Positions 4,370-23,758 of a stretch of DNA of 64,000 bases are shown piece after piece. This DNA is from an uncultured Methanoregulaceae archaeon (GTDB lineage Archaea > Halobacteriota > Methanomicrobia > Methanomicrobiales > Methanospirillaceae). Under the pieces are notes generated by a model, which was not told the origin of the DNA, did not search any database, and saw only the letters and a program-made list of their open reading frames with translations. The position numbers were made by a program, and so were the translations under genes. The stretch is from the NCBI GenBank assembly GCA_963717525.1, contig OY970343.1:224001-288000 (forward strand), given 5' to 3'. Position 1 is the first letter of the stretch. Every line of letters starts with the position of its first letter.

Positions 4370-5322
4370 GACCGTTTTGCCCTGCCTGCGGTTCTCCCCT
4401 CCCGGAGACGCGAGAGGATAGCAACCGCGCTCAGGTTGATAATGAGCGTGATGATGAGGAGTACCACCGCTACACCGAAGAGCGCATGGTAGTGCTCGCT
4501 TCCGATTGCCACGTCGCCTGTCTCGATACCAAGGGTACCGGTCAGGGTACGGACTGACGAGAGCATGTTCCAGATCGGGTTAGGAATGATCGCAGTATTG
4601 CCGGTCACCATGATGACCGCCATGGTCTCCCCAATAGCACGACCAATACCGAGGATGATCGCCGCCGCGATCCCGGAAAGGGCCGCCGGGACAATGACCC
4701 GGCTTATCGTCTGCCAGCGGGTAGCCCCGGTCGCAAGGGACCCTTCCCGGTATTCGATGGGAACCGAGCTGATCGCATCCTCGGAGACACTGATAATCGT
4801 GGGAAGTGTCATGATCCCAAGAAGAATCGACCCGGCAAGCCAGGTCTGCCCGCTGGGAATGTTGAACGCGATGCGGATGAAGGTGCTCAGGACGATCATA
4901 CCGAAAAACCCGTACACGACCGACGGGATGCCTGCAAGCAGTTCGGTAGCCGGCTTCAGGATGCTTTTTATCCGGGGAGAAGCGAGTTCAGAGATATAGA
5001 TTGCACAGCCAAGAGAAAGCGGGACGGCAAAGACCATGGCGCCTAAAGTAACAAGGAGCGTGTCGATGATGAGAGCGGATATCCCATATTGGGGCACTAC
5101 CTGGGCCGGAGCCCAGGTTGGCCCGAAGAGGAAATTGAGTACTCCCACGGTTTCGAAGATGGAGTAACCGTCCCGGAACAAGAAGAGCAGGATGAATGCA
5201 ACGACGATGACTGCAAAGAAGGCTGTGAATAAGAATACGGACCTGACGAATTTCTCCTTTAGACGGAGGACAATAACCGTGCTACCCGGGGATTTCCCGG
5301 CAGAACATTCAGGATGTGTAAT
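4370..5322 (-). CDS. pstC: Phosphate ABC permease PstC (N-terminal half; frameshift near 4398; start uncertain, possibly ATT at 5322)
   Basis: ELLAGIPSVVYG, GRAIGETMAV; frame is open upstream of 5181 through first TM (KEKFVRSVFLFTAFFAVIVVAFILLF). Confidence 0.88.
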
Positions 5323-6331: not shown

Positions 6332-6456
6332 CCATGAGATTATCCCGAGTTCATATACAATTTTTCGACATAGAATATACAGATATATATGCAAACAAGA
6401 CTAACATAGAGTCAAGCATATTTATCATATCACTCTATTCGTGAGGTGGAATTAAG

Positions 6457-7491: not shown

Positions 7492-7562
7492 TCCCCCGCC
7501 GCCGGTTTTTTTTAAAACCTTTAAACCGCATTGCGGGCTCATGGCAATCGTGAATGCGATGG

Positions 7563-8517
7563 TTACTCCTTTTTGGGGCAGGTACAGGACGAATCGCACT
7601 GGCTGCACCCTTCAGGGCAGGGTTCGATATGAATCGTCAATTTTGCCCGGGGATACTCCACGAGCAGATCGGATTCGAGATGATCGGCGAGATCATGGGA
7701 CCGGGTGACCGAGATCTCCCCGGGTACAACAAGGTGGAACTCGATAAAGATATCCGGGCCGGACCGCCGCGACCGGAAGCCGTGGAACCCGTAGGTACTC
7801 GCCCGCATGTGCGCAGATGATCGCCTTGATCCTTTCCTCATCCTGCGGGGGAAGGGAATGGTCGATGATATCGGCAAACGATCGCCTCAGGAGATCGGCG
7901 GCTGCATGCAGGATCACGAGACCGACCCCGATGGCAATGAGCGGGTCCAGAATAGTATAGCCGGTGATATGGATCAGGATCAAACCGGCAAAAACCCCCA
8001 GCGAGGTGTAGATATCCGTCCGCAGGTGCCAGGCGTCACTTTCGAGGGCGATGGACTCGGTTTCCTTTGCCACCTTCATAAGGCGCGAGGAGACATACCA
8101 GTTGGCGAGCACGGATATGCCCATCACCGCGATACCAAAGGAGAGCAACCCGGGTGAAAACTCCTGTATCGGCCCGATAAGCAGCCGCAGCAGGGCTTCG
8201 GCAATAATGATGATCGCCGCACCAAAGATGAGCAGGGCCTCGACGAGACCGGAAACATCCTCGAATTTCCCGTGCCCGAACGAGTGGCCGGCATCGGGAG
8301 GCTCAGCGGATTTTTTCACCGAAAAAAAAGCGATGACCGCCGCGAGCAGGTCCATTGAAGAATGGATGGCCTCGGAGATGATGCTCACCGAGCCGATAGC
8401 AAAACCCACACCGAATTTCAGGATCACAAGGCCGGTGTTGGAGATGACCGAGAGGTGAGCGGTCTGGACTTTCACCCGGTTGGATTCTGCCTGTCTGGGA
8501 TCCTGGTTCATGTACAT
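7563..8517 (-). CDS. Cation diffusion facilitator (FieF-like) transporter, frameshift near 7795
   Basis: SEAIHSSMD, PPDAGHSFGHGKFE, DAWHLRTD; C-terminal dimerisation domain (IHIEPC plus Cys-rich tail) in the shifted frame. Confidence 0.9.
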
Positions 8518-8576
8518 TCTCTCATGGTGGCCTGCGATACAGAAGATCAATTCAAAAAACGACCGGCGCCGGCATG

Positions 8577-8957
8577 TCAGTGCCCGGTCTTTCCGTACAC
8601 TTTTTCCGGATCAAAGACCTTATTGCTGATGATAGTCCCGTCGATGGTCCGGAAAAAACAGCTGCGGTACCCGGTATGGCAGGCAGCACCGGTCTGCTCA
8701 ACCTCGTAGATGAGGCAGTCCTCGTCACAGTCCACAAGGATCCGAAGAACCTTCTGGAAATGCCCGCTCTCCTCTCCTTTCTTCCAGAGTTTTTTGCGGC
8801 TCCTGCTGTAGTAATGGGCAAAGCCTGTGGCCGTGGTAAGGTGAACTGCCTCCTCGTTTGCATACGCCATCATGAGGACGTCCCGTGTCTTTTTGTCCTG
8901 AACGATCACCGGGATCAGTCCCCCTTCAGGGTACTTGAGGGAGAGCATGTCATGCAC
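8577..8957 (-). CDS. hisI: Phosphoribosyl-AMP cyclohydrolase
   Basis: [30 protein letters not shown]. Confidence 0.97.
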
Positions 8958-10139
8958 CTCCAGTGACGAATTTCATGATAGTGAACAGGAAGTCGCCAAA
9001 AAGGACGGCAGTAATAAGTCCCGCCGTGATCGGGAGGATGAACGGGACTGCATAGGAGATCCAGACGTTTCCTGCTTTTTTGTAGATCCCCAACTCTTTT
9101 TCAAACTCTTCGGGGTGTTCCCGGAGATCCTTGGTATACACCCTGCCCTCATCGGAACGCATCCGGCGCAGGGAATCCCAGAACCCTATAAATTTCCGCC
9201 CGATGTTGCCGTTTTTCTCCTCGACAAAATCTTCCATCACAAAGCCCCAGGCCTGCTGAATGTTGTCTCCTTTCACAGGGAAGCCGAAGAACATGTACTG
9301 GAGCGGGGCACGGTTCTTCTTTACTGTATTGATGATGAAAATACCCACTGGCGCCACCAGGTTGAGGATCAACGCATTGATCAGAACTGAGAACGACAGG
9401 AAATATCCCCCTAAAGGAGGGGTGCTAAGAAGAGGGATTATGGGAAATGTTGGTATGCAGAAGGCAATAAAGATGAGTGCCCACGCGTCGGCACCGCCGA
9501 ACAGGTGCATCTGCCCGAAGATATAAAAGACGCCACAGAATATGGCAGTAAATGCCATATAGATGCCGAACCCACCCCAGCCGCCGCTGCCAATCATATA
9601 GAACGACGCAATCGCGAGAATGATAACCACGAGCACGAAATACCAGCGGCTCAGCACCTCTTCAACATTCGATTCCCGCCGGGCGTCTTTTTTCGCCTGT
9701 TTTGCCTTGAGCCTGCGTTCAGGCTGTTTTGTGAATTCCCGGTAGGAGACATACCCGATTAATCCGGCGAACATCACGTACCATGGTATGAGCTGGGTCT
9801 CGGGCAGTTTTCCCGTGGAAATGGCCGGTATAATAAACCAGGATATGGCGGGGAGGGCAAGGACGACTGCCAGGTACGGGAGCCGGAACGGGTCCCGGCC
9901 TCGTGGTTGTCGAGGTAATCAGCATACAGGAAACTGGCTATCAGGGCGATATAACCGACAATGAGGCTGATATTTCCGGTCTGCTGGTAGAAGAATACCA
10001 TGCTCGCGGCGATCCCGACAATGAGCATCGGGTACCACGTCCTGAAAGGAACGCGCCGGTCCCTGATATCCAGGTACGATGCATAGATAAGGGTAACAAG
10101 AACGGCAACGGCCGAGATCACCATCGGGTAAAATATCAT
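8950..10139 (-). CDS. flaK: A24 family preflagellin/prepilin peptidase (FlaK/PibD-like), frameshift near 9900
   Basis: [12 protein letters not shown] (first Asp), FGGADA (second Asp), [17 protein letters not shown]-terminal motif. Confidence 0.85.
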
Positions 10140-10396
10140 AAGCAGGTTTACCGTTATATCTCCTACAACTTATGCGTGGCGATGACCCCCTGTACAGGGG
10201 CGCGTTCTGGATTGGGGGGCGGGAAATCTCCCGGTCATGGGACGGAGAGGGATCAGGTGTCCGGTTATCCGCGTGGAGATACCTTTGCAAATATATAATA
10301 CACCGGTTGTGAATACATGATTGAGGGTAATTTAAGAACGATTCGGGGAAGAAGCCTCATGTTCCCGCCCCGGATTGTACAAACGAGGATTATTTC

Positions 10397-11008
10397 ATGG
10401 ATCTGCAGGAGCTTCTGGACAATATCCTGAAGGGATCGAAGTACCTGGGCACGTTTACCCTTGCCGATATGCTCATGTTTGCATCATCCCGTCACCTGCA
10501 TGCCCTTGCCGTGGCAAAAGAGGAAAACCGCCAGTTTTACCTTGCTTTCCTTAACGGTGAACCTGAAGGGGCAATCTATATAGATACCGAGGGAGCGCTT
10601 TTTGGCGACAATGCGGTCGTATATATCCGTGAGGGCAGGCAGTATGTCCTCTGCGATGTGAAACAGGAGATCATCGATGCCCTTGCCATGGGATGCCGGA
10701 TCTTTGAAAAGGGGCATATCCGGAAAAATATTACCTATTCGGTGCCGGAAATAGGGAAAAAAAGCAAGGGGATCGGGGTGGTCAGCGTGGCCGTCCTCCG
10801 GGAAAAAAACCCGCAGAACGGCGTGCGTGTATCTATCAGGAAAGACGGCAAGATCGTGGGCAGCGATGTTACCACAGGTAACGGGGAGGTCAGTTTCCGG
10901 GTGATGTACGGGGACTATACCTGTCTTGTTCAGGACCGGTCCCAGGTCGTGACGCATTTTACGATAACCTTTGACGAATCCCATACGGCCCATATCCTGG
11001 ATCTTTAA
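10397..11008 (+). CDS. Hypothetical protein: PATAN/DUF2226-like N-terminus + carboxypeptidase-regulatory-like beta-sandwich C-terminus
   Basis: FYLAFLNGEPEGAIY resembles the PATAN core; VRVSIRKDG..TTGNGEVSF...GDY resembles CarboxypepD_reg. Confidence 0.6.
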   Translation: MDLQELLDNILKGSKYLGTFTLADMLMFASSRHLHALAVAKEENRQFYLAFLNGEPEGAIYIDTEGALFGDNAVVYIREGRQYVLCDVKQEIIDALAMGCRIFEKGHIRKNITYSVPEIGKKSKGIGVVSVAVLREKNPQNGVRVSIRKDGKIVGSDVTTGNGEVSFRVMYGDYTCLVQDRSQVVTHFTITFDESHTAHILDL

Positions 11009-11118
11009 TGACCGTCTGGACCTGATGTGGCGTTTCATCTTTTTTTTACTTACCGTCGGAACTCCCGCCCGGAACCAAGACGAAATCCTTTAATTATATA
11101 ATAGCAGACTGATCGCTC

Positions 11119-12228
11119 ATGAAGATCGGACGAGAAGACTTCGAGGCGCTCATCAAGGGTGAGAAGGACATCACCCCTTATATCGAGCTTGACACAGTGG
11201 CAGGTTCCTACTCGGTTTTCGGGGTGAAAACGGCGAGCAACCCCAATTACCTGATAAAAGCCATCTACGAGATGTATGAGGGACACCTGAACAAGAAACT
11301 GGCTGTGAAGGCAGTACGTAAGCTGTTCCGGTCGGTTGGCCTGGGATCCCTTGGCCTGTACAATCTCCTGAAAAAATTCGGTATCGAACTGTCACCTGCA
11401 GATTTCCTCCTTTTAGTCTTCAAGCTCCAGCACCAGCAGGGATGGGGTGCCCCGTTCGAACTCATCGAGCAGAGTGAGAAGAGGATTGTCCTGCGCACAA
11501 AACATACCTTCGAGTCGGAGATCCTAAAAGACTGGAAGATACCGGTCTGCGGAGTTCACATGGGATGGATCGAAGGGGTAATGATGGCTGTAACCGGTAA
11601 GAACTGGTACTGTCTTGAACGCAAGTGCGTGGCAAACGGCGACGACTGCTGCGAGTTTGTTGTCGACCAGGTAGACCCCAGCTGGAAGTTCAAGGCACAG
11701 GCCGTGGTCAAAGGCGATTCTGCAATTACCGAATTTATCGACCACCGGCCTGTGGAGGGGACGATCAAGCTGATCGATGACCCGGTGGTTATGATGCCGA
11801 GGTTTGTCTTCACGTCGATGATGAACTCCCTTAAAAAGACGATGGGCGAAATGCCGGCGGGCGGGGTGAACTACCGGGCCTACATGGATATGGGTAAGGA
11901 GAACGTCGAACACTACAAGAAGATGGGTGTCACCCAGCCAAACACGCTCTCTGATATGGCGTTTACCTTTTATTCCCAGATGGGCTGGTTCCACCTGGTC
12001 AAGAGCGAATGGAACGAGGCGAAGAAGGAAAAGACCATTACTCTGGAACATACGGTTGAATCCGAGGCGTTCGGGAATACCGGAAAGAATGTCTGCTACT
12101 GTACGGCCGGTCTCCTCGCCGGGATTATCGAGGGATCGTTTGGGATCAAGGTACAGTGCCGTGAAATCAAATGCCGTTCGAAGGGAGACGAGTTCTGCGT
12201 CTTTACGGTTACCAACAAGGCTGAATAA
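11119..12228 (+). CDS. Tandem V4R (4-vinyl reductase-like ligand-binding) domain protein
   Basis: Two copies of GWG/GWF...C...G.I.G...E.KC...GD..C.F. Confidence 0.88.
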   Translation: MKIGREDFEALIKGEKDITPYIELDTVAGSYSVFGVKTASNPNYLIKAIYEMYEGHLNKKLAVKAVRKLFRSVGLGSLGLYNLLKKFGIELSPADFLLLVFKLQHQQGWGAPFELIEQSEKRIVLRTKHTFESEILKDWKIPVCGVHMGWIEGVMMAVTGKNWYCLERKCVANGDDCCEFVVDQVDPSWKFKAQAVVKGDSAITEFIDHRPVEGTIKLIDDPVVMMPRFVFTSMMNSLKKTMGEMPAGGVNYRAYMDMGKENVEHYKKMGVTQPNTLSDMAFTFYSQMGWFHLVKSEWNEAKKEKTITLEHTVESEAFGNTGKNVCYCTAGLLAGIIEGSFGIKVQCREIKCRSKGDEFCVFTVTNKAE

Positions 12229-12458
12229 ACCGCGGAGGCAGCTCATGTGCGGCCTACACCGGCCTGCTCCCTGTTTTTCCCGCCCCTTGTTGCAGTCTTC
12301 CTGCCCGGGGATGGGAGAGACAGATTTTTTTGACTCTTTTTCTCATTGGGAGAGATGCACCGGGTGACAAACAGGAGCCGCGAAAGATTTTTATAAAAAA
12401 GAAAAATCTATCTTTAAATACTCTTATCTCGTATTGTTAAAACGGAATATTCATCCCG

Positions 12459-13259
12459 GTGAAAGCCATGGCCTCGCCAGTCCAGATCCTGATTGTGGAA
12501 GATGATGAGATCATCTCCAACCTCATTGGCGTGATCCTTGAAAAGAAAGGATATGCCGTTGCCGGCAAGGTTACGACTGGCGAAGATGCCATTATGAAGG
12601 CTGCAGAATATCAGCCGGATCTTGTCCTCATGGATATCAGTCTTGCCGGCACGCTGGATGGCATTACCGCAGCGCAATACGTTTACTCTATCTTTCGCAT
12701 CCCGGTGATCTTTCTGACCGGCCAGTGCGACGATTCAATACTCGCCCGGGCAAAGGCTGCAGAACCGTACGGATTCATTCTCAAGCCTTTTACCTCAAAC
12801 GAGATCGTATCAAACATCGAGATCGCCTTATACAACCACAGCATGCGCAAACGGTATTTTGACAAGGCCGCCCTGTGGGATATGAAGAAGATCATGGCTG
12901 CCCTCGAATCGGTGATCATAACAGACATCAAAGGCCGTATCATTTTCTTAAACCCGTATTCCTGCAGGCTGCTGGATGTCCTGGAGAAGGATGCGCTGGC
13001 ACAACCTCTCCGGAAGGTGCTAATCCTCGTAAACAAGCAGACCGGGGAACGGATCAACGACCCGGCACTAGATGTACTCCGTGACAGAATTGCAGTCAGT
13101 TATGATCTCAATACGGTCGTTGTGTCGCTCGCGAACAAGAAACGGTTCGTCGCTCTCACGGCACGCCCGGTGAAAGACGACAAGAACGACATGATCGGTG
13201 TGTCAGTTCAGATTCGTGAAAAGACCCTGACCGAGATCAAGATGGCAGAAAAGGTCTGA
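12459..13259 (+). CDS. Response regulator REC + PAS
   Basis: ILIVEDD, DLVLMDI, PVIFLT, KPF; PAS VIITDIKGRIIFLN. Confidence 0.92.
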   Translation: MKAMASPVQILIVEDDEIISNLIGVILEKKGYAVAGKVTTGEDAIMKAAEYQPDLVLMDISLAGTLDGITAAQYVYSIFRIPVIFLTGQCDDSILARAKAAEPYGFILKPFTSNEIVSNIEIALYNHSMRKRYFDKAALWDMKKIMAALESVIITDIKGRIIFLNPYSCRLLDVLEKDALAQPLRKVLILVNKQTGERINDPALDVLRDRIAVSYDLNTVVVSLANKKRFVALTARPVKDDKNDMIGVSVQIREKTLTEIKMAEKV

Positions 13260-13307
13260 TACAATCCCCGTTTTCTCATCCTGAAATAAAAATTATAAAA
13301 AGGATAG

Positions 13308-14108
13308 TTATTTTTTATCTGATTTCTTTTTGAAGAGTGCCTTTGAGAACCGGTCGATAAAGCCTTCACGGGGCACCTTGGCCGGGGTGTCCTCCTTATA
13401 CGCCACGCCAATGAGATCTGACGCAATCCGGTGGATTGCCTTTGATGCGGGTGAATCCGGGTAGGTAACTACAATGGGAGAACGCGCGGCTGCGGCTCTT
13501 CTCACGTTAGTATCCTCCGGGATAATTCCAAGAACTTTTACCCCGAGTACTTTTTCCATCTTACGGGAGATGACGTCGCTCTTGTCCTGGTCGACACGGT
13601 TGATGATGGATCCAAGGACATGTCCTCCGACAACTTCTGTCAGGATCTTCGTCTTGAGTGCATCGACAATAGACGACAATTCGGGATTGACCACGAGGAT
13701 AACTTCGTCGGCCACGGCAAGCGGTACGACACCATCCTTGCTGATCCCGGCAGGTGCATCGATCAAAAGGAATTCGCACCTTTTTACAATTTCAGAGAGA
13801 ACGTCCCGGATCTTGTCCGGATCTGCCTGCTGGAAGCCCTGGAGAGAGATGCCGCTCGGGATGACCTTGAGTCCGCCCGGTCCCGGGTAGATCCCATCCT
13901 CGATATTATTTTTTCCGGCAAGAATTTCGTGCAGGGTTACCGGTGCATCCTGCAATCCCAGAATCAGGCCGACATTTGCCATGCCGATATCGGCATCCAT
14001 AAGGTAGGTTTCCTTTCCCAGTTTGGCAAGCATCGTTCCGAGATTGACAGAAACGGTGGTTTTACCTGTACCTCCTTTTCCGGATGCAATTGTGTATACC
14101 TTAACCAT
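13308..14108 (-). CDS. minD: MinD-family ATPase
   Basis: Deviant Walker A SGKGGTGKTT, DADIGMAN, IDAPAG, C-terminal amphipathic helix GFIDRFSKALFKK. Confidence 0.93.
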   Translation of the reverse strand: MVKVYTIASGKGGTGKTTVSVNLGTMLAKLGKETYLMDADIGMANVGLILGLQDAPVTLHEILAGKNNIEDGIYPGPGGLKVIPSGISLQGFQQADPDKIRDVLSEIVKRCEFLLIDAPAGISKDGVVPLAVADEVILVVNPELSSIVDALKTKILTEVVGGHVLGSIINRVDQDKSDVISRKMEKVLGVKVLGIIPEDTNVRRAAAARSPIVVTYPDSPASKAIHRIASDLIGVAYKEDTPAKVPREGFIDRFSKALFKKKSDKK

Positions 14109-14194
14109 CAAACACCTGTTGTCGTCCTGCTTATTATTATCCTCTGCAATTATACGTATTGTGGAATATTTTATTTATGTGTTTCATATTCGTG

Positions 14195-14764
14195 TTATAT
14201 CCACCAGTTTAAAATATCTTTTGTCTCTCGTACCATATCAGGATCGGGTTCCTGCACGAGAAGATCCTTTGTCTTAGCTATTCCCACCAGAAAGGATCCC
14301 TTGTGCTCAAAGCCAAACAGCATGACTCCTGGGGGTCGAGGCTGCACATTTTCCGCATACATCCCGGCGTATCGTGCAACCGCATCAGCGGAAGGTGTTT
14401 TTTGAGATGATGCGAGCAGCAGGCCATCGGAAGTGGCAAGGGTAATTTCGTCCAGTGAGTATTTTTCCGCAAGAGCCGCAAGACTCGCCCTGAGATCCGC
14501 ACTTCCCTTGAGACAGTCGATCTCCTTTGGCCGGGGAGCGGATACAAAGACCGTATCCTGATCGAAAGAGCCGTCCGGGGCGTTTAACGGGATTTTCTGT
14601 ACTCTCAGGGGAGTCCGGGACGGGTCGAGGGAAATTTTACGGGGATGGCCCTTTGCCCCGGACCGTAATTTTATGAGGACGAGTGCGGCTGCAATGCAAA
14701 AAATGACTGCAATAGCCACGCCAAGGAGCAGAATTGTATCATCGATACCAAAGAGAATCGACAT
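14195..14764 (-). CDS. Membrane-anchored protein with degenerate Roadblock/LC7-like C-terminal domain
   Basis: N-terminal TM; ITLATSDGLLLAS is a Roadblock signature. Confidence 0.65.
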   Translation of the reverse strand: MSILFGIDDTILLLGVAIAVIFCIAAALVLIKLRSGAKGHPRKISLDPSRTPLRVQKIPLNAPDGSFDQDTVFVSAPRPKEIDCLKGSADLRASLAALAEKYSLDEITLATSDGLLLASSQKTPSADAVARYAGMYAENVQPRPPGVMLFGFEHKGSFLVGIAKTKDLLVQEPDPDMVRETKDILNWWI

Positions 14765-14785
14765 CTTCCCGGCACCTTCAGGTTT

Positions 14786-15495
14786 TTAGTCCTTGTCCAT
14801 CAGGTGGTCAAGGCGGAGATGTTTTACCATCGTTTTGCATTCATCCCTGATCTTATCGGTTACCTGGTCGAGGTTCATTGAATTCAGTGTGTCCAGATCA
14901 TTCTCAAAATCTGTTTTTCCGGTCTCTTTTACCGGAGCTTCCGGTTCTTTTGGCCCCGGTCTTTTATCTGCCCGGAATGATGGAGGGGGAACGGTGACAG
15001 GATTTTTCGGGCCAGCGAGGGACCGGGGGGTCTTTTCCGGTGAACGTGCCACAAGTTTTGATACTTCTTCGCTTGGGGGGGCCGGGGTTGCTCCCTGTGA
15101 CGGGCTGGTTTTTTTTGCCATTACGTGGGGAGCTGTGGGTGGCGGGGGATGTACCGCTTTCTGGGGGGGGGAGGTTCGCGGGGGGCTTTTATGACCTTCT
15201 CGGACTTGTTGAATTCCAATGATAACTGAATCTGAGCCTCATCCAGGGTCGAGAGCGCAGCATCAATGGCCTCGCCCGCATTGGACATAAGGAGGCTTTC
15301 GAGTGCGGCATCACCCTTGGACGTGGTGTACTCTGCAAGAATACACTTTCCAGATTTCAGCACAAGTGTGCAGATGCCCTCCCGGCATGAAATGCTGCAG
15401 ATCCCGGAGAAACGGCTCCGCTCAAGTTCAGCGAGGAGGTCTCCGGCCTTCTGGTTCTTCTGGATCTCGCGGAATGTACCGCGGGGCAGTTGCAT
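14786..15495 (-). CDS. PATAN/DUF2226-like domain protein with Pro-rich linker (frameshift in C-run near 15183)
   Basis: MQLPRG...FSGICSIS...LVLKSGKCILAEY; removing one C joins ORFs 15121-15495 and 14786-15121. Confidence 0.7.
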
Positions 15496-16084
15496 GATCT
15501 CTCTAATGATTGCATTCCAGTATATAGTTTCTTTTCTGGCACCCGGAATTGTTATTCCCCCTGTAACCAGAGGTACAAATACCAGCCCCTGTCAGTAACC
15601 GGCCTTTTTACCTGGGCACTACATGGTCCTGTTGAAACTCTTCGCTATCGACATCGTTATTGGCGGAGAGGACCCTGCCTGAAAACGGTGTGAACTGGTC
15701 TTACCATTTTCTGCTAAAAAAAATCCGGGGAAATATTTTTCGGGACCGGAAAGAAGAGGTCACCTCATATCTGGCACGTGGATGTACATCCCGCTCTTTT
15801 TTTGCTGCCGACAGGTCTGCCCACCCGGATCGCGATTTTTCCGGGGAAATCCCGGCCCGCTGTTTTTGCAGGACAGTCTCTTGCCAGGCTTTTTTATTTC
15901 AACGCGTCAGGTTTGCACTGACTTTTCGCTCATAGGAGTTTTCTTGGGTGCTCTCATCCCTGCCTTTGTGGGGCCGGGGCTCTAATGGCTTTATTTTTTG
16001 TTTTTGTGGATTATACCAGCACATTCTCCGGAAAAATACCCCAATCTATTAATAGAAAAAAGACAAGAAAGTCACAATTATTAA

Positions 16085-16450
16085 ATGGGTGAGATTGTGG
16101 TGATGCTCAAGCCGTTGTTAGAGGAGTTTCTGAGAGTTGAAGGGGTATCTGCTGCAGTGGTGGTAGGAAGAGACGGGTTCGTGATCGAAAGCGCAGTGTC
16201 CGGCAAGGTAGATATCGAGGCGCTTGGCGCTATGGCCTCAACCGGCCTTGGAACATCCGAAGCGATGGGGAATACTTTGGGGAAAGGCGAGCTCTCCCAG
16301 ATGCTTGTTGAACTGGAAAAAGGGCCTATTATTCTGGCCCCCCTGTCTGCGGATGAACTGATTGCGCTGGTGGCAGATACAACAGCAAATATCGGCAGGA
16401 TTCGTTATGAATTAAAGAAGAACAAGGAAAGAATCGTCGCGGCTCTCTAG
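16085..16450 (+). CDS. Roadblock/LC7 (MglB-like) protein
   Basis: GVSAAVVVGRDGFVIES, EALGAMAS, ANIGRIRYE. Confidence 0.92.
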   Translation: MGEIVVMLKPLLEEFLRVEGVSAAVVVGRDGFVIESAVSGKVDIEALGAMASTGLGTSEAMGNTLGKGELSQMLVELEKGPIILAPLSADELIALVADTTANIGRIRYELKKNKERIVAAL

Positions 16451-16475
16451 ATCCATTATTTATCGGGCTATTTTT

Positions 16476-17217
16476 ATGAAACTGCCGGCAGGGACACAGG
16501 GGGGTGTCGTTCTCGATCCGAAGAATGAGGATATGGTTGAGCACCTCAGGACATTCCGGGGTGCTATCGAGATTGATACCGGCCGGGGAAAGGGATTTAT
16601 CCTCATGCGTAACGGCGAACTGGTTGCTGCATACTTCGAGGACAAAGACGGTGTTTACCGGGGGGGCGCTGCGGTACGATGTATCATGGCCACCCCGGAG
16701 AGTAACAGGAGCGAGCACCAGCAGAATTTTGTCATGAGATCTGTACAATGAGGAGGATTACGCAGAAGCGCTGGACATGTGCACTCAGGACAGTCTCTTT
16801 ATCGGGAATGCTTTGCCGGTGCATGACGCAGCTCCTTATCCTCCAAAGAGCCCCGGTGCATCCAGGTCTCCTTCCTGCATCGTAAATGAATCAACCCTTG
16901 GCAAGATCATGAGTCAGCCGGGGGTTGTTGCAGTTTCTGCATTCTATGAAGGATTTCCGGTCCTCTCCCTGGGAGAAGCGGATTTTGAGCATGTGGCAGC
17001 TAGGGCCGAGGATTTTCTTCGGGCCGGAACCGGGATAGCCCAGGATATGAACCTCGGTCAGCCCGGCCAGATAATCCTCGAAACAGCAGAGAACAAATTT
17101 ATTATCGTTCCCTGCGGAGACCTTTTTCTCTGTATTATCACCCGTGCAGATGCCCAGCTCGGTCTCATGCGGGTCCTGATCAGGAGCATCCAGAACGAAG
17201 TGGGGCGTGAAACATGA
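16476..17217 (+). CDS. PATAN/DUF2226-like + Roadblock fusion protein (frameshift near 16743)
   Basis: MKLPAG...FRGAIEI...GFILMRNGELVAAYF; C-terminal GVVAVSAFYEGFPV...IILET...DAQLGLMR; removing one base joins the two ORFs. Confidence 0.75.
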
Positions 17218-17337
17218 CCGGCCCGGTGCGGTTTATAGGGGAAGGTTTTTCCAGCATTGTGTCAGAGAATACATATAGTCCGAGATAAGAAGAATCTTTT
17301 ATAAAAATACCGGGAGCGGTTAACACCAGACAGGGGG

Positions 17338-19778
17338 ATGTTCAGATTGAAATCACATGATGATGATGAAGTCCATGACGATATAAGCACCCTTCTTAAA
17401 AAAATCCGGGGTATACAGGCACCGGAAGACGAATCGGCCGGGCCTGTTGTGGCACCACCCCCTGAAAAGAAGCCCGGGGGGAGGAATCTGATGCAGGAAG
17501 CGCTGGTGATTTTTCCGCTCTTATAAAAAAACTTGGCGTGAATAACATCGGTACACCTTTTGGGGCTGAGCCGGAACCTGCCCCCGCCAAGGATACAGCT
17601 CCCCCCGGTAAATCCCCCCTTCAAGGGGAAAAACCCGACAGTCTTTGATGACCTGCTTGAAGATCTTCCTCCATCAAAACCGTTCCGGAATCTCCTGCGC
17701 TGAGCAGCGATGATGTACGCGTAGCGCTGGGTAAGATCATGGGACAGACTGAACCTGCCCCTGCGCCCTCCACGCCTCCCGGAGAAAAACCCGTACCTCC
17801 GGCAACTGAACCCCCTAAGGAACAAACAGTTGAAATCGTTGAAGAAGATCCCCACGCACACCGGGCTTCTGAATTCTTCAAGAAAAAAAAGGCAGCAAAA
17901 AAAGGAACCGAACCCTTACCTGTTGAAGATATCGCGGTGAGCGATACGGACGAGCGGATCATCTCCGCAGACCAGATTTCCGAGTTTTCGGGACTGATCC
18001 TCCCCAAGGGAGCCACCTTCCAGATTGACGAGATTAACCTTCATGGCAGGGTAAATGCTTTCGGGAGCACCGGCACCGGTACCCTCCCCCCGGAACTTGC
18101 TGATATCTGGAAGCGGGAATTTTCGACCGCCGAATTCAAGGATTTCGAATCCGAGCTGACCCTTGAAAAGGAAAAACCAGACCAGGGTACGGCAAAGAAG
18201 TCCAGATTTGCCGCTCTTTTCAGTGCCATACGATCAGAAACCGTCGACTATGATCCCAAACTGCATGGACCTTTGGTAGATCTCTCCTTTGATTCAAAAC
18301 CCGGTGTCGAAGTGATGGAGATGTACCCGGTAAATGAACCCTTTGCCTATGTCCGGGTCATCTATGACCATGCTACCCATGAATATACCTATCAGGTTAT
18401 CGAACCTGTCCTATCAGAACCTGAAAAAGACCTGCTGAAAGAATTAAAAGAGCGCCTCTTTGAGACGCTTGATATCAATACCAAGGATATATCAAAGGAC
18501 GAAGCCCGGATTCAGCTCAGGCATTCTGTCGATGATATCCTTGCCGATTTTGGGATAAAGCTCAACCCGGTCCAGCGTGAGAAGATCCTCTATAATATGC
18601 ATAAGGATTTCCTGGGGGACGGCCTGATCGATGCGATCATGCATGACAAGTACATCGAGGATATCTCCTGCGACGGGGTCAACACACCTCTCTTTGCCTT
18701 CCATGCCAGTTACGAATCGATGAAGACCACTCTGATGTACCACAATGCAGAGGAGCTCGACTCGTTTGTCACAAAACTCGCCCAGCGTGCCGGCAAGTAC
18801 ATCTCTATTGCCGAACCTATCCTCGATGCCACCATGACCGATGGCTCCCGTATCCAGATGACCCTCGGGCAGGAAGTGACCGCCCATGGATCCACCTTCA
18901 CCATCCGTAAGTTCAAGGACGAACCGATCACCCCGACCGATCTCATCGAGTGGCACACGTTTGCCCCCCTTTCGGTTGCATACATCTGGCTTGCGGTCGA
19001 GAATGGGAAATCTGCAATCTTCGCCGGGGGAACGGCATCCGGTAAGACCACGTCGTTAAACGCGATCTCCCTTTTCATCCCCCCGATGGCGAAGATTGTC
19101 AGCCTCGAAGATACCCGTGAAGTGAAGCTCCCCCACCCCAACTGGATCCCTAGTGTAACGCGGGACTCATTTGATACGGCAGGACGCGGGGAGATTAACA
19201 TGTACGAACTCCTCCGTGCCGCGATGCGGCAGCGGCCTGAGTATATCATTGTCGGGGAAGTCCGTGGCAAGGAATGCCAGACGCTCTTCCAGGCGATGAG
19301 CACCGGCCATGTCACGTACTCCACGATCCACGCGGATTCGGTATCGAGTGTCGTCCACCGTATCGAGAACCCCCCTATGGATGTTCCGCGGAACATGCTC
19401 TCGGCACTCGATATCGTCTGTATCCAGGTACAGGCCCGGATGGGTGGAAAACGGATCCGGCGGAACAAACAGATTGTCGAGATCCTCGATATCGACCCGC
19501 GGACCAACGAACTGATCACAAACGAGGTCTTCAAGTGGCGGTCGGCGACCGATGAGATCACTTACTCGGGGAAGTCCTATATCCTTGAAGATATCATGGA
19601 GTCGCGGGGCTGGAACGAAAACCGGATGCGGGAAGAACTCAAACGCCGGCAGGAAGTGCTTGAGTGGATGCGCCTCAAGAAGATCCGGCATTACAAGGAT
19701 GTTGCCAAGATCCTTATCTCGTATTACCGGGAACCCGAAGTGGTTGTCGAGCGTGTAAGGAAGGACCTGTATGAATAG
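17338..19778 (+). CDS. Type II/IV secretion (type IV pilus assembly) ATPase, FlaI/PilB-like, with long acidic/Pro-rich N-terminus (indels in 17470-17680; intact ORF from 17739)
   Basis: GGTASGKTT, SLEDTRE, RQRPEYIIVGEVRG, TGH...TIHA. Confidence 0.92.
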
Positions 19779-20694
19779 CTTTGAACGATTCTGTTTCAAC
19801 CTTCTGGGCATGCGGATGAAGGCGAGGCGTGAGCAGTACTCCCAGCTCCGGAACGACCTCATCTCTGCCCGGCTCAAAACCCCGTTTGAGGTGTATATCT
19901 CCACGGCAGTGGTCAGCTCCATCATCGTAGGTCTGGTCGCTGCGCTCGGATTGGGTCTTGTTACCTGGTTTTTAAAGATCCCCAACCTTATTCACTACAA
20001 AGGGGAGGTTCCGGCAACGATGCTCTTCCTCAACCAGTACGGTCTTTTGCTGGGGACCATTTTTGCCGTCGTCTTCTCCCTGCTGGTATTCGGAGGGATA
20101 ACGTATGCGATCTTTATTGTGTATCCCTCGGTCGAAGCCGGAAACCGGCGCCGGAATATCGATGCAAGCCTTCCCTATGCGATCAACTATATTACATCCA
20201 TGTCCACCGCCGGTATTACCCCGGCAGAGATCTTCCGCCTGCTGGGGGACAGCCCGATCTATGGTGAGAGCTCCGTGGAAGCACGGTATATCGCACGGGA
20301 GATCGACATCTTCGGGCGGGATCTTATTGATTCGCTCAGGATTGTCTCTTCGAGTACTCCCTCCCATCGGATGAAGGAGTTTTTACAGGGTGCGATGGCC
20401 AGTATTTCCAGTGGCGGTAACCTCACGGACTATTTCCGTACCAAGGCGAACCAGTACGCTCTGGAGAACCGCCAAACCCAGAAACTATTCCTGGATACGC
20501 TTGCGCTGATCTCAGAATCGTACGTGACGGCGATGGTGGCCGGCACGCTTTTTTTGATCATCCTTCAGTCGATCATGTCCGTCATTGGCGGAGATTCAAA
20601 GCCGATATTTCTCTATGTCGTCATCTATCTCATGATCCCCTTCGGCACAATGATGTTTATTATCATGATCAGTTCCATGACCCCGGAGACCTGA
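19771..20694 (+). CDS. Type II secretion system F (TadC/FlaJ-like) membrane platform protein
   Basis: IDASLPYAINY, TPSHRMKEFL, ESYVT; overlaps the ATPase stop. Confidence 0.9.
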   Translation: MNSFERFCFNLLGMRMKARREQYSQLRNDLISARLKTPFEVYISTAVVSSIIVGLVAALGLGLVTWFLKIPNLIHYKGEVPATMLFLNQYGLLLGTIFAVVFSLLVFGGITYAIFIVYPSVEAGNRRRNIDASLPYAINYITSMSTAGITPAEIFRLLGDSPIYGESSVEARYIAREIDIFGRDLIDSLRIVSSSTPSHRMKEFLQGAMASISSGGNLTDYFRTKANQYALENRQTQKLFLDTLALISESYVTAMVAGTLFLIILQSIMSVIGGDSKPIFLYVVIYLMIPFGTMMFIIMISSMTPET

Positions 20695-20695
20695 T

Positions 20696-21742
20696 ATGGC
20701 ATTTAACGACAGATTAAAGGGCATTATCGGAAAAGAGAAGGATCCCCGCGAACAACCCCCCCCACTCCCCCGCAACGAGTTGGATTCGGTTGAAAAAGAA
20801 CTGAATGATATCACCGGGAAACTGGAGGCTGAACGGAAGAGCCAAGAAGGAATGGCACGGTTCTTAAAGCACCCGCTCAAAGTTCTGGTAGAGAAACCCG
20901 AAAATATCCTTATTGTCTGCATCCCGCTCTCATTGATCGTCTTTATCGGCGGATTTGTCTCGATGGTGAAGATGTATGGTATCCAGGTGCTTTTTAACTC
21001 AACCGTTATCGATGATTTTGCGATACTGGCGATCCTTATCTCTATAATTCCCGTTTCAGTTCTCGATTTCAGGGAACAGACCCGAGTAAAAAATCTCGAG
21101 AACGCACTCCCCAACTTCTTCCGTGACCTGGCGGGTATGAATGATTCCGGTATGACCCTGCCCAACGCCGTTCACCTTGTCGCTGGCGCAGAATATGGTA
21201 CCCTGACCCCCCATATACGGAAACTGGACAACGAGATGTCGTGGGGCGTCGGTTTCGTGGAGGGTATGTACCGGTTCGGGAAGGGCTTGGGCACACCGTT
21301 AGCCAACCGGAGTGTCGATCTGATCGCTAAGGCCAGTAAAGCCGGTGGGGATATCAGCGAAGTGCTCCGTGCAGCAGCAAATGATACTTTCGAGGTGGTC
21401 AACCTTGCACAGGAACGCCGGAATAACATGTTTATCTACGTGATCATCGTGATAGTCTCGTGGGCAGTTTTTATGTTTGTTATCGCGGTCCTCGTGAGTT
21501 CCTTTTTAAGTACCATGGCCACCGCGGGCACGGCGGCACAGATGACGGCAGCGAGCAGCAAGTTCATGGGACGCATCGATCTCCCGGCGTACAAACGGTT
21601 GTTCACCCATGCAGCGATGATCCAGGGCTTTTTTTCCGGGCTCTGCGCCGGCCAGATGGGTGAAGGGCGGGTTGTTGCCGGTCTCAAATATTCGGCAATT
21701 ATGCTGATCATATCGTGGGTTGTCTTCCGCTTCTTCATCTGA
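20696..21742 (+). CDS. Second type II secretion system F (TadC-like) protein
   Basis: LPNFFRDLA...SGMTL, GGDISEVL, GQMGEG..AGLKY. Confidence 0.9.
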   Translation: MAFNDRLKGIIGKEKDPREQPPPLPRNELDSVEKELNDITGKLEAERKSQEGMARFLKHPLKVLVEKPENILIVCIPLSLIVFIGGFVSMVKMYGIQVLFNSTVIDDFAILAILISIIPVSVLDFREQTRVKNLENALPNFFRDLAGMNDSGMTLPNAVHLVAGAEYGTLTPHIRKLDNEMSWGVGFVEGMYRFGKGLGTPLANRSVDLIAKASKAGGDISEVLRAAANDTFEVVNLAQERRNNMFIYVIIVIVSWAVFMFVIAVLVSSFLSTMATAGTAAQMTAASSKFMGRIDLPAYKRLFTHAAMIQGFFSGLCAGQMGEGRVVAGLKYSAIMLIISWVVFRFFI

Positions 21743-22308: not shown

Positions 22309-23758
22309 ATGAGTATGCCGCTCATGGTCGTGGGGACTTCGTCGCATGTGGGAAAAAGCATAACGGTGGCGGCGATCTGCCGGTGCCTGGTGCACCGGGG
22401 AATAAGCGTAGCACCGTTCAAGTCCCAGAACATGAGCCTGAACTCGTTTGTGACCGCAGATGGGGGCGAAATCGGGATAGCACAGGCAATGCAGGCCTGG
22501 GCTGCCCGGCTCTCCCCTACGACCGACATGAACCCGGTGCTGCTCAAGCCGAAAGGTGACTGCGTCTCGCAGGTGGTGCTTTTCGGCCATCCCTATAAGG
22601 ACGTCCCCATCGCGGAGTACTATGCAGAAACGCCCTTCCTTCTATCAGAGGCGGTGGCCGCGTTTGGGCGGCTTATGCAGGAGTACGGCCAGGTTGTTGC
22701 CGAAGGTGCCGGGGGAGCAGCCGAGGTCAATCTGTATGACCGTGATATCGCAAATACGCTGCTTGCAGAGGCCCTCAAAATTCCCCTGATCCTCGTGGCT
22801 GATATTGAGAGAGGGGGTGTATTTGCCCAGGTCTATGGTACCCTGAAACTGCTGCCGGAACCGATCCGGCCACTCGTCCGGGGCATCATTATCAATAAAT
22901 TCCGGGGCGATCCTGCCATCTTTGAAAGCGGAATCCGGATCATCGAGGATCTCACCGGGATTCCGGTGCTCGGCGTTGTGCCGTACTTCTCGATCCCTCT
23001 TCCCAGCGAAGACTCCCTCTCGATCGCAGACAAGGTTCACCGGGATCTCCCGGTCCGTATCGCGGTGATCCGTTTCCCCCATGTATCCAATTTCACGGAC
23101 TTCGAGCTCCTCGAACAGTACGCATCGGTGGAGTACGTGCCCTGCGGGGTGCCCCTTGCCGGCTACGACTGCATCATTCTTCCCGGCACCAAGAACACGA
23201 TCGACGATCTTGCTGCGCTGAGAGCAGCCGGCATGGACCGCGAACTGCTGGCTGCACAGGAAAACGGGGTTCCCGTCATCGGTATCTGCGGGGGGTACCA
23301 GATGCTCGGGAAGACCCTCGTGGACGAGGGGTTTGAGTCCAAAGCCGGCGTGTATCCCGGTCTTGGCCTGCTCGACTGCACCACCCGGTTCGCCTCGTAC
23401 TCCAAGAACACCACGCAGGTTCGCCGCCGGGCAGCACCGGTGCCCCCGATCCTGTCATCCATGGGTGAGGTGACCGGCTGACGAGATCCACATGGGGGTG
23501 ACGAAACCGGGTCTCGATCGCGAGGCATTCTCCGGTGACGGCCGGGTAAACGCTGACGGCCTTGTCTTTGGTACCTACATGCATGGGCTCTTCCTCAATC
23601 CGGCCGCAGCAAATGCGCTGCTCGCCTACTTGTCCGGGAAAAAAGGTCTGCCGTACACCCCGATTCCTGCCGAAGGTTCGGATCCCTACGACATGCTTGC
23701 GTGCCTGTTCGAGGAACATGTCGACATGGAAGCGATCATAACCATTCTGAACGAATAA
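22309..23758 (+). CDS. cobQ: Cobyric acid synthase (frameshift near 23480)
   Basis: [40 protein letters not shown] is restored by removing one base; GTYMHGLF. Confidence 0.93.

Follow-up and report, generated by a model that had tools for sequence, protein, structure and literature searches.

Genes of the locus

Within a 64,000-nucleotide stretch of DNA (the window) from a soil methanogen, a pilus-building motor is encoded inside a conserved block of regulator genes. All of the genes listed for positions 8950-21742 by the first-pass annotation were recovered there by open reading frame and profile searches, intact and in the claimed order, and its statement that the cluster holds no small GTPase, histidine kinase or pilin was confirmed, no GTPase, pilin or kinase reading frame being present within the cluster. 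Four genes are frameshifted in the window, namely those of the peptidase (indel at 9889), P2 (15162), P3 (16741) and the ATPase (17475, 17642 and 17681). The indel at 15162 is seen in the short-read contigs of 2/2 covering runs, both possible sources, and the others in those of 4/4 runs; because the short-read contigs show the indels, the frameshifts are regarded as assembly errors and the genes as intact. The repaired proteins are further borne out by unsplit relatives (peptidase of 381-393 aa in L031 and L036; P2 of 258 aa, P3 of 259 aa and ATPase of 812 aa in L031).

The core of an archaeal type IV pilus machine, that is, a VirB11/PilB-type ATPase, TadC platforms and an A24 peptidase, is encoded here. 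The A24 prepilin peptidase (FlaK/PibD-like, one gene, 8950..10139, minus strand) exceeds the curated cut-offs of both PF01478 (34.6 bits) and PF06847 (85.3 bits). The assembly ATPase (17338..19778, plus strand) passes T2SSE PF00437 with 110 bits, carries a long acidic Pro-rich N-terminus and displays the motifs GGTASGKT (Walker A) and GEVRG. Two TadC/PilC platform proteins follow on the plus strand at 19771..20694, overlapping the ATPase stop by 8 bases, and at 20696..21742, with T2SSF PF00482 scores of 54 and 58 bits, over the cut-off. The ATPase probably belongs to clade 2 (PilB3-like), as suggested by its PilB3_C score of 26 bits, against a cut-off of 27, together with the clade 2 locus of the same gene order in Methanoregula boonei. 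No retraction partner for the ATPase lies within the locus. An archaellum motor was considered and rejected, since the FlaI model scored 416, below its cut-off of 550, the FlaJ score fell far below cut-off, and the archaellins sit beside another ATPase at C1:730-733 kb, away from this locus. The host genome (G000, 87% complete) encodes four further ATPases of the same family, as well as nine class III pilin matches (PF07790, over cut-off), all located elsewhere and none in the cluster.

Three proteins bear PATAN/DUF2226-like N-terminal domains. X1 (10397..11008, plus strand) joins this domain to a C-terminal transthyretin-like beta-sandwich, which superposes on 3e8v with Z 12.7 and rmsd 1.4 over 75 aligned residues; P2 (14786..15495, minus strand) continues into a Pro-rich linker and a conserved C-terminal helical motif; and P3 (16476..17217, plus strand) is fused to a Roadblock domain. 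X1 has no hydrophobic segment (maximal KD19 1.0) and is therefore likely cytoplasmic. The three N-domains are homologous to one another, with hhalign values of 94% and, for X1 versus P3, 83%. All three fall below the PF14332 (PatA_N/DUF4388) cut-off in G000 (14.8-16.3 bits against 25, E about 0.03 for two of the three), and PF09987 (DUF2226) gave no direct match there. Nevertheless, the P2 and P3 profiles match DUF2226 proteins that are themselves over the cut-off, mostly with E 1e-7 to 1e-16, and the PF09987 cut-off is exceeded by the P3 and P2 orthologues from f14 (26.1 and 23.1 bits). The Atlas feature score for PATAN was 0.86, with the family on 12% of members; in the fold searches the other domain of each protein took up the result lists. 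P2 and P3 thus appear homologous to DUF2226 proteins as judged from profiles, although membership itself stays below cut-off in G000, and the earlier description of three PATAN/DUF2226-like proteins stands as a statement of homology rather than of Pfam assignment.

The same annotation had proposed three Roadblock-type domains, of which two were verified. Rb (16103..16450, plus strand), a stand-alone Roadblock/MglB-like protein, reaches 61.4 bits with PF03259 and retains an Asp24-Gly25 pair; the Roadblock domain of P3 reaches 30.2 bits, also over cut-off, and its model (pLDDT 84.5) matches solved Roadblocks with Z 16.8 and rmsd 1.9 over 112 aligned residues, Glu-Gly replacing Asp-Gly in most members. 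The best solved relatives of both are Asgard Roadblocks, and the score with the MglB equivalog NF052242 was 26.9, below the cut-off of 200. The third protein, TMRb (14195..14764, minus strand), is a single-pass membrane protein with a clear transmembrane segment (KD19 3.14), the C-terminal domain of which is at most a candidate Roadblock/profilin-like domain: PF03259 matched 0/17 members, hhalign gave 3%, and the Atlas TM values of 0.63-0.66 lay under the bar. Its counterpart in the M. boonei locus is labelled as Roadblock/LC7 family, arCOG03412, in the tabulated loci of Makarova 2016 (PMC4858521).

The tandem V4R protein (11119..12228, plus strand) matches PF02830 in two stretches with 84.1 bits, over cut-off, and its two Cys-bearing halves contain invariant cysteines at positions 144, 165, 170, 178, 326, 328, 352 and 360, which would make it a candidate ligand or metal sensor and a family-specific input. 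It is followed by a REC-PAS response regulator (12459..13259, plus strand; phosphoacceptor Asp59; PF00072 74.7 and PF13426 28.6, over cut-offs). The archaeal MinD/FleN ATPase (13308..14111, minus strand) scores 315 bits with TIGR01969 against a cut-off of 202, has the deviant Walker A KGGTGKT, and ends in a conserved FxxRFxxxLF segment (alignment A8). This segment lay outside the top six windows of a hydrophobic-moment scan, so the membrane-targeting helix noted earlier rests on the motif; the protein is an archaeal MinD with a conserved C-terminus, while the scan itself did not rank the segment highly. A MinCDE division-site system was rejected on the MinE criterion, as PF03776 was without a match in G000, 87% complete.

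Conservation and the separable units of the block

The anticipated synteny was observed: MinD, P2, Rb, P3, the ATPase and both TadC genes occur in one order in 50/50 full-flank Methanoregulaceae loci. The tandem V4R gene (45/50), TMRb (detected in 41/50) and REC-PAS (29/50) are less constant, and the last, although present here, is better viewed as an optional passenger than as a part of the module. Rb, P3, the ATPase and the two TadC genes are co-oriented, with intergenic gaps of 25, about 120, -8 and 1 bases.

The block is a composite of an older pilus locus, a MinD/P2 unit and a Roadblock/V4R unit. In 5/5 loci examined, the arrangement hisI-A24 / X1-PilB-TadC-TadC stands without the module, and X1 lies immediately 5' of PilB in all five of these, examined in full (L285-L289); X1 hence belongs to the older pilus locus and is kept there even without the regulators. 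In L280, L303 and L306, which form one clade with L281 (support 0.98) and represent one event of co-loss, Rb, P3 and the tandem V4R gene are missing together while P2-MinD still adjoins PilB. Since MinD-P2 persists beside the pilus genes after the loss of Rb-P3, MinD does not need the Roadblocks, and the proposal that the Roadblocks regulate MinD is weakened by this one clade. P2 was found within two genes of MinD in 13/13 distinct loci examined, also where Rb is distant, and two MinD lineages (f2/f3 versus f1) occupy the same pilus locus at different junctions. The link to the pilus, constant as it is in Methanoregulaceae, is lineage-limited: in f4 (L110 apart), f5, f14 and f8, Rb, P3 and MinD are encoded at a distance from the pilus locus, and in the last two of these families no pilus ATPase gene occurs over about 10 kb around them.

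The regular association of a V4R-type gene with the two Roadblock genes was upheld across families, with a change in the type of V4R. The tandem V4R gene occurs in 20/26 f1 genomes, 0/34 genomes of f2-f6 and f14, and, as one weak match, in 1/7 of f8, whereas a hydrogenase-linked V4R-like gene occurs in 0/26 f1 genomes versus 27/28 genomes of f2-f5 and f14; neither type was found in 6/6 f6 genomes, which also lack an Rb orthologue. Rb directly follows a [NiFe]-hydrogenase cassette of the order ferredoxin - V4R-like - MvhG-like - MvhA-like in 12/12 non-g1 loci, and the same order recurs in nine more loci (six of f14, L110, L111 and L112). No Mvh-like hydrogenase was found in G000 (best tblastn 24-27%), and the cassette is present in 0/50 Methanoregulaceae loci. 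The papers found contain no description of this hydrogenase-V4R-Roadblock cassette.

MglA-family GTPases elsewhere in the genome

The first-pass annotation had presented the system as one without MglA, which holds for the cluster and fails for the genome. No MglA-family GTPase lies within the 50 full-flank module loci (0/50), and a coupled MglA/MglB system, with MglA within four genes of MglB, was accordingly rejected. The genome-wide search revealed two orphan GTPGQ-type MglA-family GTPases in G000, at C1:1640443-1640973 (minus strand) and C1:63026-64186 (plus strand), both of which show the features of MglA Groups 2-5, namely a P-loop, Thr for Arg in G2, GTPGQ in G3 and NKxD in G4; the TIGR00231 score was 54.9 against 42.5. 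The short GTPase has GTPGQ, TT in G2 and NKxD, and the second is a KaiC-like fusion of 386 aa, above the 240 aa limit of PMC4316618. According to the portions available of Wuichet and Sogaard-Andersen (PMC4316618), the MglB partners of Groups 2-5 keep the Asp-Gly pair, and Rb likewise keeps its Asp24-Gly25. The refuting observation that the first-pass annotation had named, a cognate MglA elsewhere, was thereby made as far as presence goes, the two GTPases being candidate partners of Rb.

The short GTPase occurs in 42/48 Roadblock-positive versus 3/15 Roadblock-negative genomes, which are related and not independent counts. Its identity is 33-84%, compared with 59-100% among Rb orthologues, and no Roadblock or PATAN gene lies within 1.5 kb of it (0/55 loci). 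A second Roadblock encoded elsewhere in G000 could be its partner instead. Neither MglA-family GTPase was found in four f4 genomes (97-99% complete; family search in three), which keep Rb (70-73% identity), P3, P2, TMRb and MinD in a module away from the pilus locus; because these near-complete genomes keep the Roadblocks, GTPase-free action is possible. G251 has a full window-like locus and the fusion GTPase, and the short GTPase was not found in it. The fusion GTPase lies directly beside a Roadblock in 5/5 f8 genomes holding its orthologue, with V4R genes next in the two loci examined; elsewhere it is untied to Rb, being present without an Rb orthologue in 4/6 f6 genomes and in G129, G246, G001 and G023.

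Proposed mechanism, alternatives and known systems

The overall model of the first-pass annotation was retained in its co-conservation, its two Roadblocks, the DUF2226/PATAN-like homology and the V4R companion, and was revised where it dispensed with MglA and coupled the Roadblocks to MinD. The reading preferred here, to which we assign somewhat less than an even chance, is an ordinary pilin-less archaeal pilus assembly unit with two inserted regulatory units that likely govern the site and timing of pilus assembly, the positioning and polarity roles being inferred. The MinD-P2 pair would likely mark a membrane site, with P2 as a partner of MinD (activator or adaptor) and TMRb as a possible membrane anchor. 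The V4R-Rb-P3 unit would likely pass on a signal from a small molecule, with an MglA-family GTPase from another part of the genome as the probable intermediary: the tandem V4R protein may serve as the sensor, replacing an older hydrogenase-linked V4R input, and Rb may dimerise with the P3 Roadblock domain, a pair on which the short GTPase would find its GAP/GEF platform. Output could run through the PATAN-like domains of X1, P3 and P2, which would bind the ATPase or TadC by analogy with cyanobacterial PATAN-PilB1/PilC, while pilins would be supplied in trans.

The Roadblock/PATAN proteins might instead act directly on MinD or the ATPase, fed by V4R, with the orphan GTPases serving other Roadblocks or none. 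The four f4 genomes, G251, the module loci free of GTPases and the far stronger conservation of Rb than of the short GTPase all speak for this, as does the adjacency of DUF2226 and Roadblock in 15/20 distinct f8 loci, a count that covers these two gene types only. We nonetheless consider it unlikely, given that G000 has two MglA-family GTPases, Rb keeps Asp-Gly, the short GTPase largely tracks Rb among these related genomes, MinD-P2 outlasts Rb-P3 beside the pilus, and the f4 modules in question lie away from the pilus locus. Equally unlikely is a general system for redox/hydrogen sensing or for pole marking that had an ancestral tie to an Mvh-like hydrogenase and acts on something other than this pilus. 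Hydrogenase, archaellum or chemoreceptor arrays may be what it positions, and the pilus neighbourhood would be inherited gene order. The cassette preceding Rb, the f14 and f8 loci distant from any pilus ATPase, and the archaellins and four further ATPases of G000 fit such a system, but G000 lacks the hydrogenase and the module still sits at the pilus locus in every full-flank Methanoregulaceae locus, in tight co-orientation from Rb to the second TadC gene, with two MinD lineages at this locus and X1 fixed there without the module.

Distinctly more doubtful is an on/off switch of pilus assembly (adhesion versus swimming) with a FleN-style limit on pilus number and no spatial polarity. Clade 2 haloarchaeal pili are adhesion pili, a FleN/FlaH-like role has been proposed for arCOG00589 in the sections available of PMC4858521, and the ATPase is without a retraction partner in the locus; the conserved membrane-type C-terminus of MinD and its membrane-anchored neighbour argue against it, as does haloarchaeal MinD4, which is described in the available text of 10.1101/2020.04.03.021790 as acting on position, though number control remains compatible with both. 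Extending the preferred reading, the locus may, with rather low probability, represent an old archaeal pathway for sensing and positioning, in its branch without a hydrogenase. An exchangeable V4R input, fed by the hydrogenase in most families and of the tandem type here, would then drive a Roadblock/PATAN platform with or without MglA, P2 would be the long-missing MinD partner, and the PATAN-like domains would gate an adhesion-pilus motor. If so, H2 or a redox ligand would be the cue by which hydrogen-using methanogens position their pili or turn them on.

The locus itself is known already: Makarova, Koonin and Albers (2016, PMC4858521) placed MinD/FleN (arCOG00589) and Roadblock (arCOG02603) near type IV pilus loci, and their Table S4 contains the M. 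boonei locus of the same gene order, its ATPase being clade 2 in Table S2. In the parts of that paper available, no mechanism is offered for the Roadblocks, PATAN, V4R and DUF2226 are absent from the main text, and the supplement has 0 matches for DUF2226 and V4R; X1 is labelled there as a surface protein, in contrast to the PATAN-like N-domain and lack of a hydrophobic segment found here. No functional study of this locus was found in the literature. Euryarchaeal clade 2 pili of the Haloferax volcanii PilB3/PilC3 type share the pilin-less set of ATPase, two TadC proteins and A24 peptidase.

MglA/MglB Groups 4-5 and orphan MglB, as treated in the available portions of PMC4316618, share with this genome the Asp-Gly Roadblock and a GTPGQ GTPase; unlike MglA/MglB, including Myxococcus MglA/MglB/MglC, GTPase and Roadblock are here encoded apart, each as an orphan, MinD and V4R join the set, a PATAN-like domain is fused with one of the Roadblocks, and no RomR/Frz-type part was seen among the genes of the cluster. 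In contrast with Group 1 MglA, the GTPase has no arginine finger. PATAN genes near MglB are also mentioned in that paper, citing Makarova 2006. The Synechocystis PATAN domain is stated to bind PilB1 and PilC in the available text of 10.1101/2021.06.11.447907, and PATAN-like domains are encoded with a PilB/PilC-type motor here too; unlike in PatA-type regulators, the fusion partner is not REC but, depending on the protein, Roadblock, beta-sandwich or C-terminal helix, and PF14332 stays below cut-off. Haloarchaeal MinD4 and MinD2 affect the polar motility machinery (accessible sections of PMC11588486; 10.1101/2020.04.03.021790), and Haloferax MinD2/MinD4 share with the present MinD a membrane-type C-terminal segment, the lack of MinE and a link to a surface-filament machine. 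They act on the archaellum and chemosensory arrays according to those sections, unlike the pilus-locus MinD, and the candidate partner named there is HVO_0596, neither Roadblock nor PATAN, with 0 mentions of roadblock. The Asgard Roadblock, small GTPase and TRAPPC3/V4R-like proteins, like eukaryotic TRAPP and Ragulator (PMC10933270), comprise the same three folds; in the present case the genes for these folds go with MinD, with PATAN-like domains and with a pilus motor. Unlinked genes for GTPases and their regulators are common in Asgard archaea too (PMC10933270).

Gene content, intactness and conservation of the block

Between window positions 8950 and 21742, all the genes named in the first-pass annotation were found by ORF reading, and in the order it had given: an A24 prepilin peptidase (-), X1 (a PATAN/DUF2226-like domain with a beta-sandwich, +), a tandem V4R protein (+), REC-PAS (+), MinD (-), the membrane-anchored Roadblock-like TMRb (-), P2 (PATAN-like with a C-terminal helix, -), the stand-alone Roadblock/MglB-like Rb (+), P3 (a PATAN-like and Roadblock fusion, +), a pilus ATPase (+) and two TadC proteins (both +). 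Pfam and NCBIfam matches over cut-off cover the A24 peptidase, the V4R and REC-PAS proteins, MinD as an archaeal type, two of the Roadblock domains, the ATPase and the TadC pair. The source genome (G000; 2.29 Mb, one contig designated C1, 87% complete) finds its closest named loci, among the best 80 of 362, in Methanoregula and Methanoregulaceae.

In the window, the peptidase, P2, P3 and the N-terminus of the ATPase are frameshifted, while their counterparts in relatives are intact. The indels at 9889, 16741, 17475, 17642 and 17681 were corrected in the short-read contigs of 4/4 runs, two of which are not marked as possible sources, and that at 15162 was corrected in both runs covering the site (2/2). 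Because the short-read contigs repair the frameshifts and the relatives are undamaged, the cluster genes are intact, and a pseudogene or artefact reading was rejected, the indels being assembly errors.

Conservation was assessed on the best 80 of the 362 named loci, a set biased to close kin, of which 50 with at least 7.5 kb upstream and at least 6 kb downstream were counted. The anticipated co-conservation was borne out by synteny, as MinD, P2, Rb, P3, the ATPase and both TadC genes were kept in 50/50 loci, accompanied by the peptidase (49/50), X1 (48/50), the tandem V4R (45/50), TMRb (41/50) and REC-PAS (29/50); GTPase or hydrogenase genes occurred in 0/50. Used as a query on 251 genomes drawn from the phylum, Rb had matches in 50, with the family-level groups f1 (to which the present locus belongs) to f5 positive, f14 at 10/10, f8 weak at 7/41 and f6 at 0/6. 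Extra Roadblock genes, or pairs of Roadblock and PATAN-Roadblock paralogues, were also noticed at L110:12605-14145, L114:9842-11220 (following a HAMP-type membrane protein gene), L117:9131-11292 and L104:9780-10145. In f8 (L228-L244), DUF2226 adjoins a Roadblock gene in 15/20 distinct loci, often near a HAMP-type membrane protein gene, and MinD is adjacent in 2/20 only.

Domain identities and GTPases encoded elsewhere

By hhalign, P2, P3 and X1 share homologous N-domains (P2-P3 94%, X1-P3 83%, X1-P2 24%), and the P2 and P3 profiles match bona fide DUF2226 proteins, mostly with E of 1e-7 to 1e-16. Scores against PF14332 fell under the cut-off and the PF09987 profile had no match anywhere in G000, while f14 orthologues exceed the PF09987 cut-off; Atlas leads were DUF2226 (0.89) and PatA_N (0.86), and the fold-search lists were filled by the other domain of each protein rather than the N-domains. 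The earlier description of three PATAN/DUF2226-like proteins thus stands as homology, short of an in-genome Pfam match over cut-off, and the label may fairly be applied to them as homologues and at most putative members. The X1 model (pLDDT 84.4) ends in a transthyretin-like sandwich (Z 12.7), and that of P3 (pLDDT 84.5) in a Roadblock fold (Z 16.8, rmsd 1.9, 112 residues aligned). Of the three Roadblock-type domains proposed, those of Rb and P3 were confirmed by Pfam and, for P3, by fold; TMRb is membrane-anchored by hydropathy, and its Roadblock assignment is at most a lead. The claim of a membrane-targeting helix in MinD was upheld in part, through a conserved C-terminal FxxRFxxxLF segment that a hydrophobic-moment scan did not single out as amphipathic. 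P2 also has a linker rich in Pro and, at its C-terminus, a conserved helical motif. Among relatives, tandem-duplicated PATAN-like domains were observed in X1 (325 aa; L033, L034, L038), P3 (628 aa; L040:7911-9797) and P2 (330-390 aa; L098-L103, L307), and the Pro-rich linkers differ several-fold in length, which fits tethered adaptors.

The statement that the system is without MglA is true of the cluster, which has none in the 50 loci counted, and untrue of the genome, where two MglA-family GTPases lie elsewhere. One is a 176 aa orphan (the short GTPase; G000:C1:1640443-1640973, L054:1378-1908, -), whose gene is convergent with that of an HD-like protein; the other is a 386 aa KaiC-like-GTPase fusion (G000:C1:63026-64186, L055:727-1887), preceded by a DUF7504 protein gene at L055:8-730. 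In both, G3 reads GTPGQ, G2 has Thr-Thr and NKxD is present. According to PMC4316618, GTPGQ, a Thr in G2 and NKxD mark MglA Groups 2-5, whose MglB partners keep an Asp-Gly pair; Rb possesses this pair, with Asp24 nearly invariant and Gly25 invariant. The short GTPase was present in 42/48 genomes with an Rb orthologue vs 3/15 without, among genomes at least 90% complete, G115 being left out and kin not being independent. Of the three Rb-negative, GTPase-positive cases, one is interrupted by stops and two lie where contigs end inside the cluster. A Roadblock gene lay within 1.5 kb of the short GTPase in 0/55 loci. The locus is neither a coupled MglA/MglB system nor MglA-free at the genome level.

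The fusion GTPase orthologue lies directly beside a Roadblock gene in 5/5 f8 genomes, and V4R genes follow in the two loci read (L145 and L147), so that a single operon can hold all three kinds of gene; in G000 those neighbours are missing beside the fusion. A 2017 treatment of KaiC-like ATPases by Makarova, Galperin and Koonin reportedly may already cover KaiC-GTPase-Roadblock-V4R operons. The fusion does not track Rb, and on this ground the fusion or a second (L2-type) Roadblock was rejected as an obligate partner.

Composite origin of the block and its V4R genes

The block is composite, consisting of an older pilus locus, a MinD-P2 unit and an Rb-P3-V4R unit. The hisI-peptidase and X1-ATPase-TadC-TadC arrangement occurs without the module (the Roadblock, PATAN, MinD and V4R genes) in 5/5 fully read loci of f4, f5 and f6. 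X1 is present in 22/36 genomes searched, Rb-less ones among them, and was dismissed as a module gene, since it stays with PilB where Roadblock is absent. MinD lies at most two genes from P2 in 13/13 distinct loci examined, including loci with Rb elsewhere. Rb and P3 occur together in 20/20 loci, and a V4R-type gene accompanies them. L280 (from a 98% complete genome), L303 and L306 lack Rb, P3, the tandem V4R and TMRb, and still have P2 and MinD by the ATPase; since they form one clade with L281 (support 0.98), their deletions are counted as a single loss event.

The module lies within the pilus locus, at differing junctions, in f1, f2, f3 and L110, and apart from it in the remaining f4 loci, f5, f14 and f8. 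Of the pilus-linked MinD proteins, those of f2/f3 and of f1 are separate lineages, the f1 type grouping with a G040 MinD that adjoins a REC gene and a second Roadblock. That MinD-P2 units of two kinds occupy the same pilus locus suggests a functional tie. In G000, a second Roadblock with two REC genes after it is situated 27 kb before the cluster (C1:205057-206670, L052:850-2463), divergent from a gene for a 65 aa membrane/coiled-coil protein; elsewhere, homologues of this small protein come after MinD. The site looks like a past location of the P2-TMRb-MinD unit.

In f2-f5 and f14, Rb directly follows a cassette of ferredoxin, three-Cys V4R/ATC-hydrolase-like and MvhG/MvhA-like genes, the last two with RICGIC and DPCISCATH motifs intact and no MvhD in the locus; two f8 loci combine cassette parts with TMRb, MinD, Rb and a DUF2226 protein. 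The cassette was not found in G000. The hydrogenase-linked V4R-like gene was detected in 27/28 f2-f5 and f14, 2/7 f8, 0/26 f1 and 0/6 f6 genomes, and the tandem V4R in 20/26 f1 genomes with a single weak f8 match elsewhere, none of the 68 genomes searched having both. They are not close homologues by hhalign (4%), and direct descent of the tandem V4R from the hydrogenase-linked gene found no support. The tandem V4R has E values of 5e-6 to 2e-4 against V4R genes from the GTPase-Roadblock operon of f8 and of 3e-3 to 0.6 against the hydrogenase-linked ones, a hint that it is slightly nearer the former. The reading of V4R as a genus-level passenger was rejected on the locus and genome counts. The cassette is a candidate sensory hydrogenase, and a literature search, Methanocella included, found nothing on a Roadblock-linked hydrogenase. 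The exchange of the two V4R types points to a possible input and bears on methanogen attachment to hydrogen-producing partners. Cassette loci without MvhD directly before Roadblock are L039-L050, L098-L103, L110-L112, L115 and L116, and a HycI-type protease gene lies near the cassette in f4/f5 loci.

Proposed mode of action and related observations

The locus is tabulated in print yet unexplained, and as a gene neighbourhood it is not novel. Makarova, Koonin and Albers recorded in 2016 (PMC4858521) that archaeal T4P loci include genes for MinD/FleN and Roadblock proteins, and their tables hold a Methanoregula boonei locus of the same gene order plus a second Roadblock locus, and adjacency of PATAN to MglB was recorded in 2006, as cited in PMC4316618. 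Methanogen REC-PAS regulators are uncharacterised (PMC5847659), as were orphan MglB proteins in 2014 (PMC4316618). In Haloferax, the motility machinery is influenced by MinD2 and MinD4 (PMC11588486; 10.1101/2020.04.03.021790), and structural descriptions exist for Asgard proteins of the Roadblock, GTPase and V4R-like kinds (PMC10933270). A literature search mostly short of subscription papers found no functional study of the module and no match on DUF2226, and the literature surveyed knows no MinE-like partner of archaeal MinD.

The module is proposed to act on an ordinary pilus in the manner of an MglA/MglB-PATAN switch to which a MinD unit is coupled. MinD would bind the membrane by its C-terminus, with P2 licensing or activating it and TMRb serving as the anchor; Rb may pair with the Roadblock domain of P3 into a dimeric platform on which the short GTPase works, the tandem V4R acting as modulator; and the PATAN-like domains might pass output to the ATPase or TadC, by analogy with Synechocystis (10.1101/2021.06.11.447907). 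Pilins would be supplied in trans, the genome-wide class III search having returned nine matches over cut-off outside the cluster. The parts are observed; the scheme as a whole is given somewhat under an even chance. The locus offers soluble, well-folding candidate partners: for MinD this is P2, for Rb/P3 it is the short GTPase, and for the pilus motor they are X1, P3 and P2. They bear on methanogen adhesion-pilus control besides the MinD partner and the orphan MglB.

Direct action of the Roadblock and PATAN-like proteins on MinD or the ATPase, independent of any GTPase, would accommodate G251, in which the locus is complete and the short GTPase is lacking, and four Rb-bearing f4 genomes (97-99% complete) in which neither MglA-family GTPase was found, a family search having covered three of them; it is nevertheless unlikely in view of the two GTPases of G000, the Asp-Gly pair of Rb and the co-occurrence of Rb with the short GTPase. 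A hydrogen/redox-sensing or pole-marking role unconnected to the pilus draws on the families in which the module stands apart from the pilus locus and on the cassette before Rb, but the two MinD lineages at one pilus locus suggest otherwise, and this too is judged improbable. Control of pilus number or on/off state without polarity is held to be more doubtful still.

Further secretion ATPases of the same family occur near G000:C1 49913, 734602, 1151188 and 2087963, one by a pilin cluster (1.14-1.15 Mb) and one by archaellins (730-733 kb), with TadC-like genes near 27050-28735. A sigma-70 promoter scan, a method ill-suited to archaea, showed no enrichment, with 9 sites vs 12 expected. At window 4102-8550 and 22309-23758, the phosphate transporter, cation efflux and cobQ ORFs look frameshifted too, probably through the same sort of assembly error. 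A PhoU-like regulator at window 6457-7491 recurs with 97% identity at G000:C1:23532-24563, suggesting a recent duplication or a binning artefact. A six-frame scan of C1 revealed about ten non-coding sites sharing one short translated motif, near 250292 (window ~26290, the copy inside the window), 396223, 400337, 544652, 627204, 777112, 1040011, 1352666, 1355204 and 1616040, which suggests a dispersed DNA repeat.
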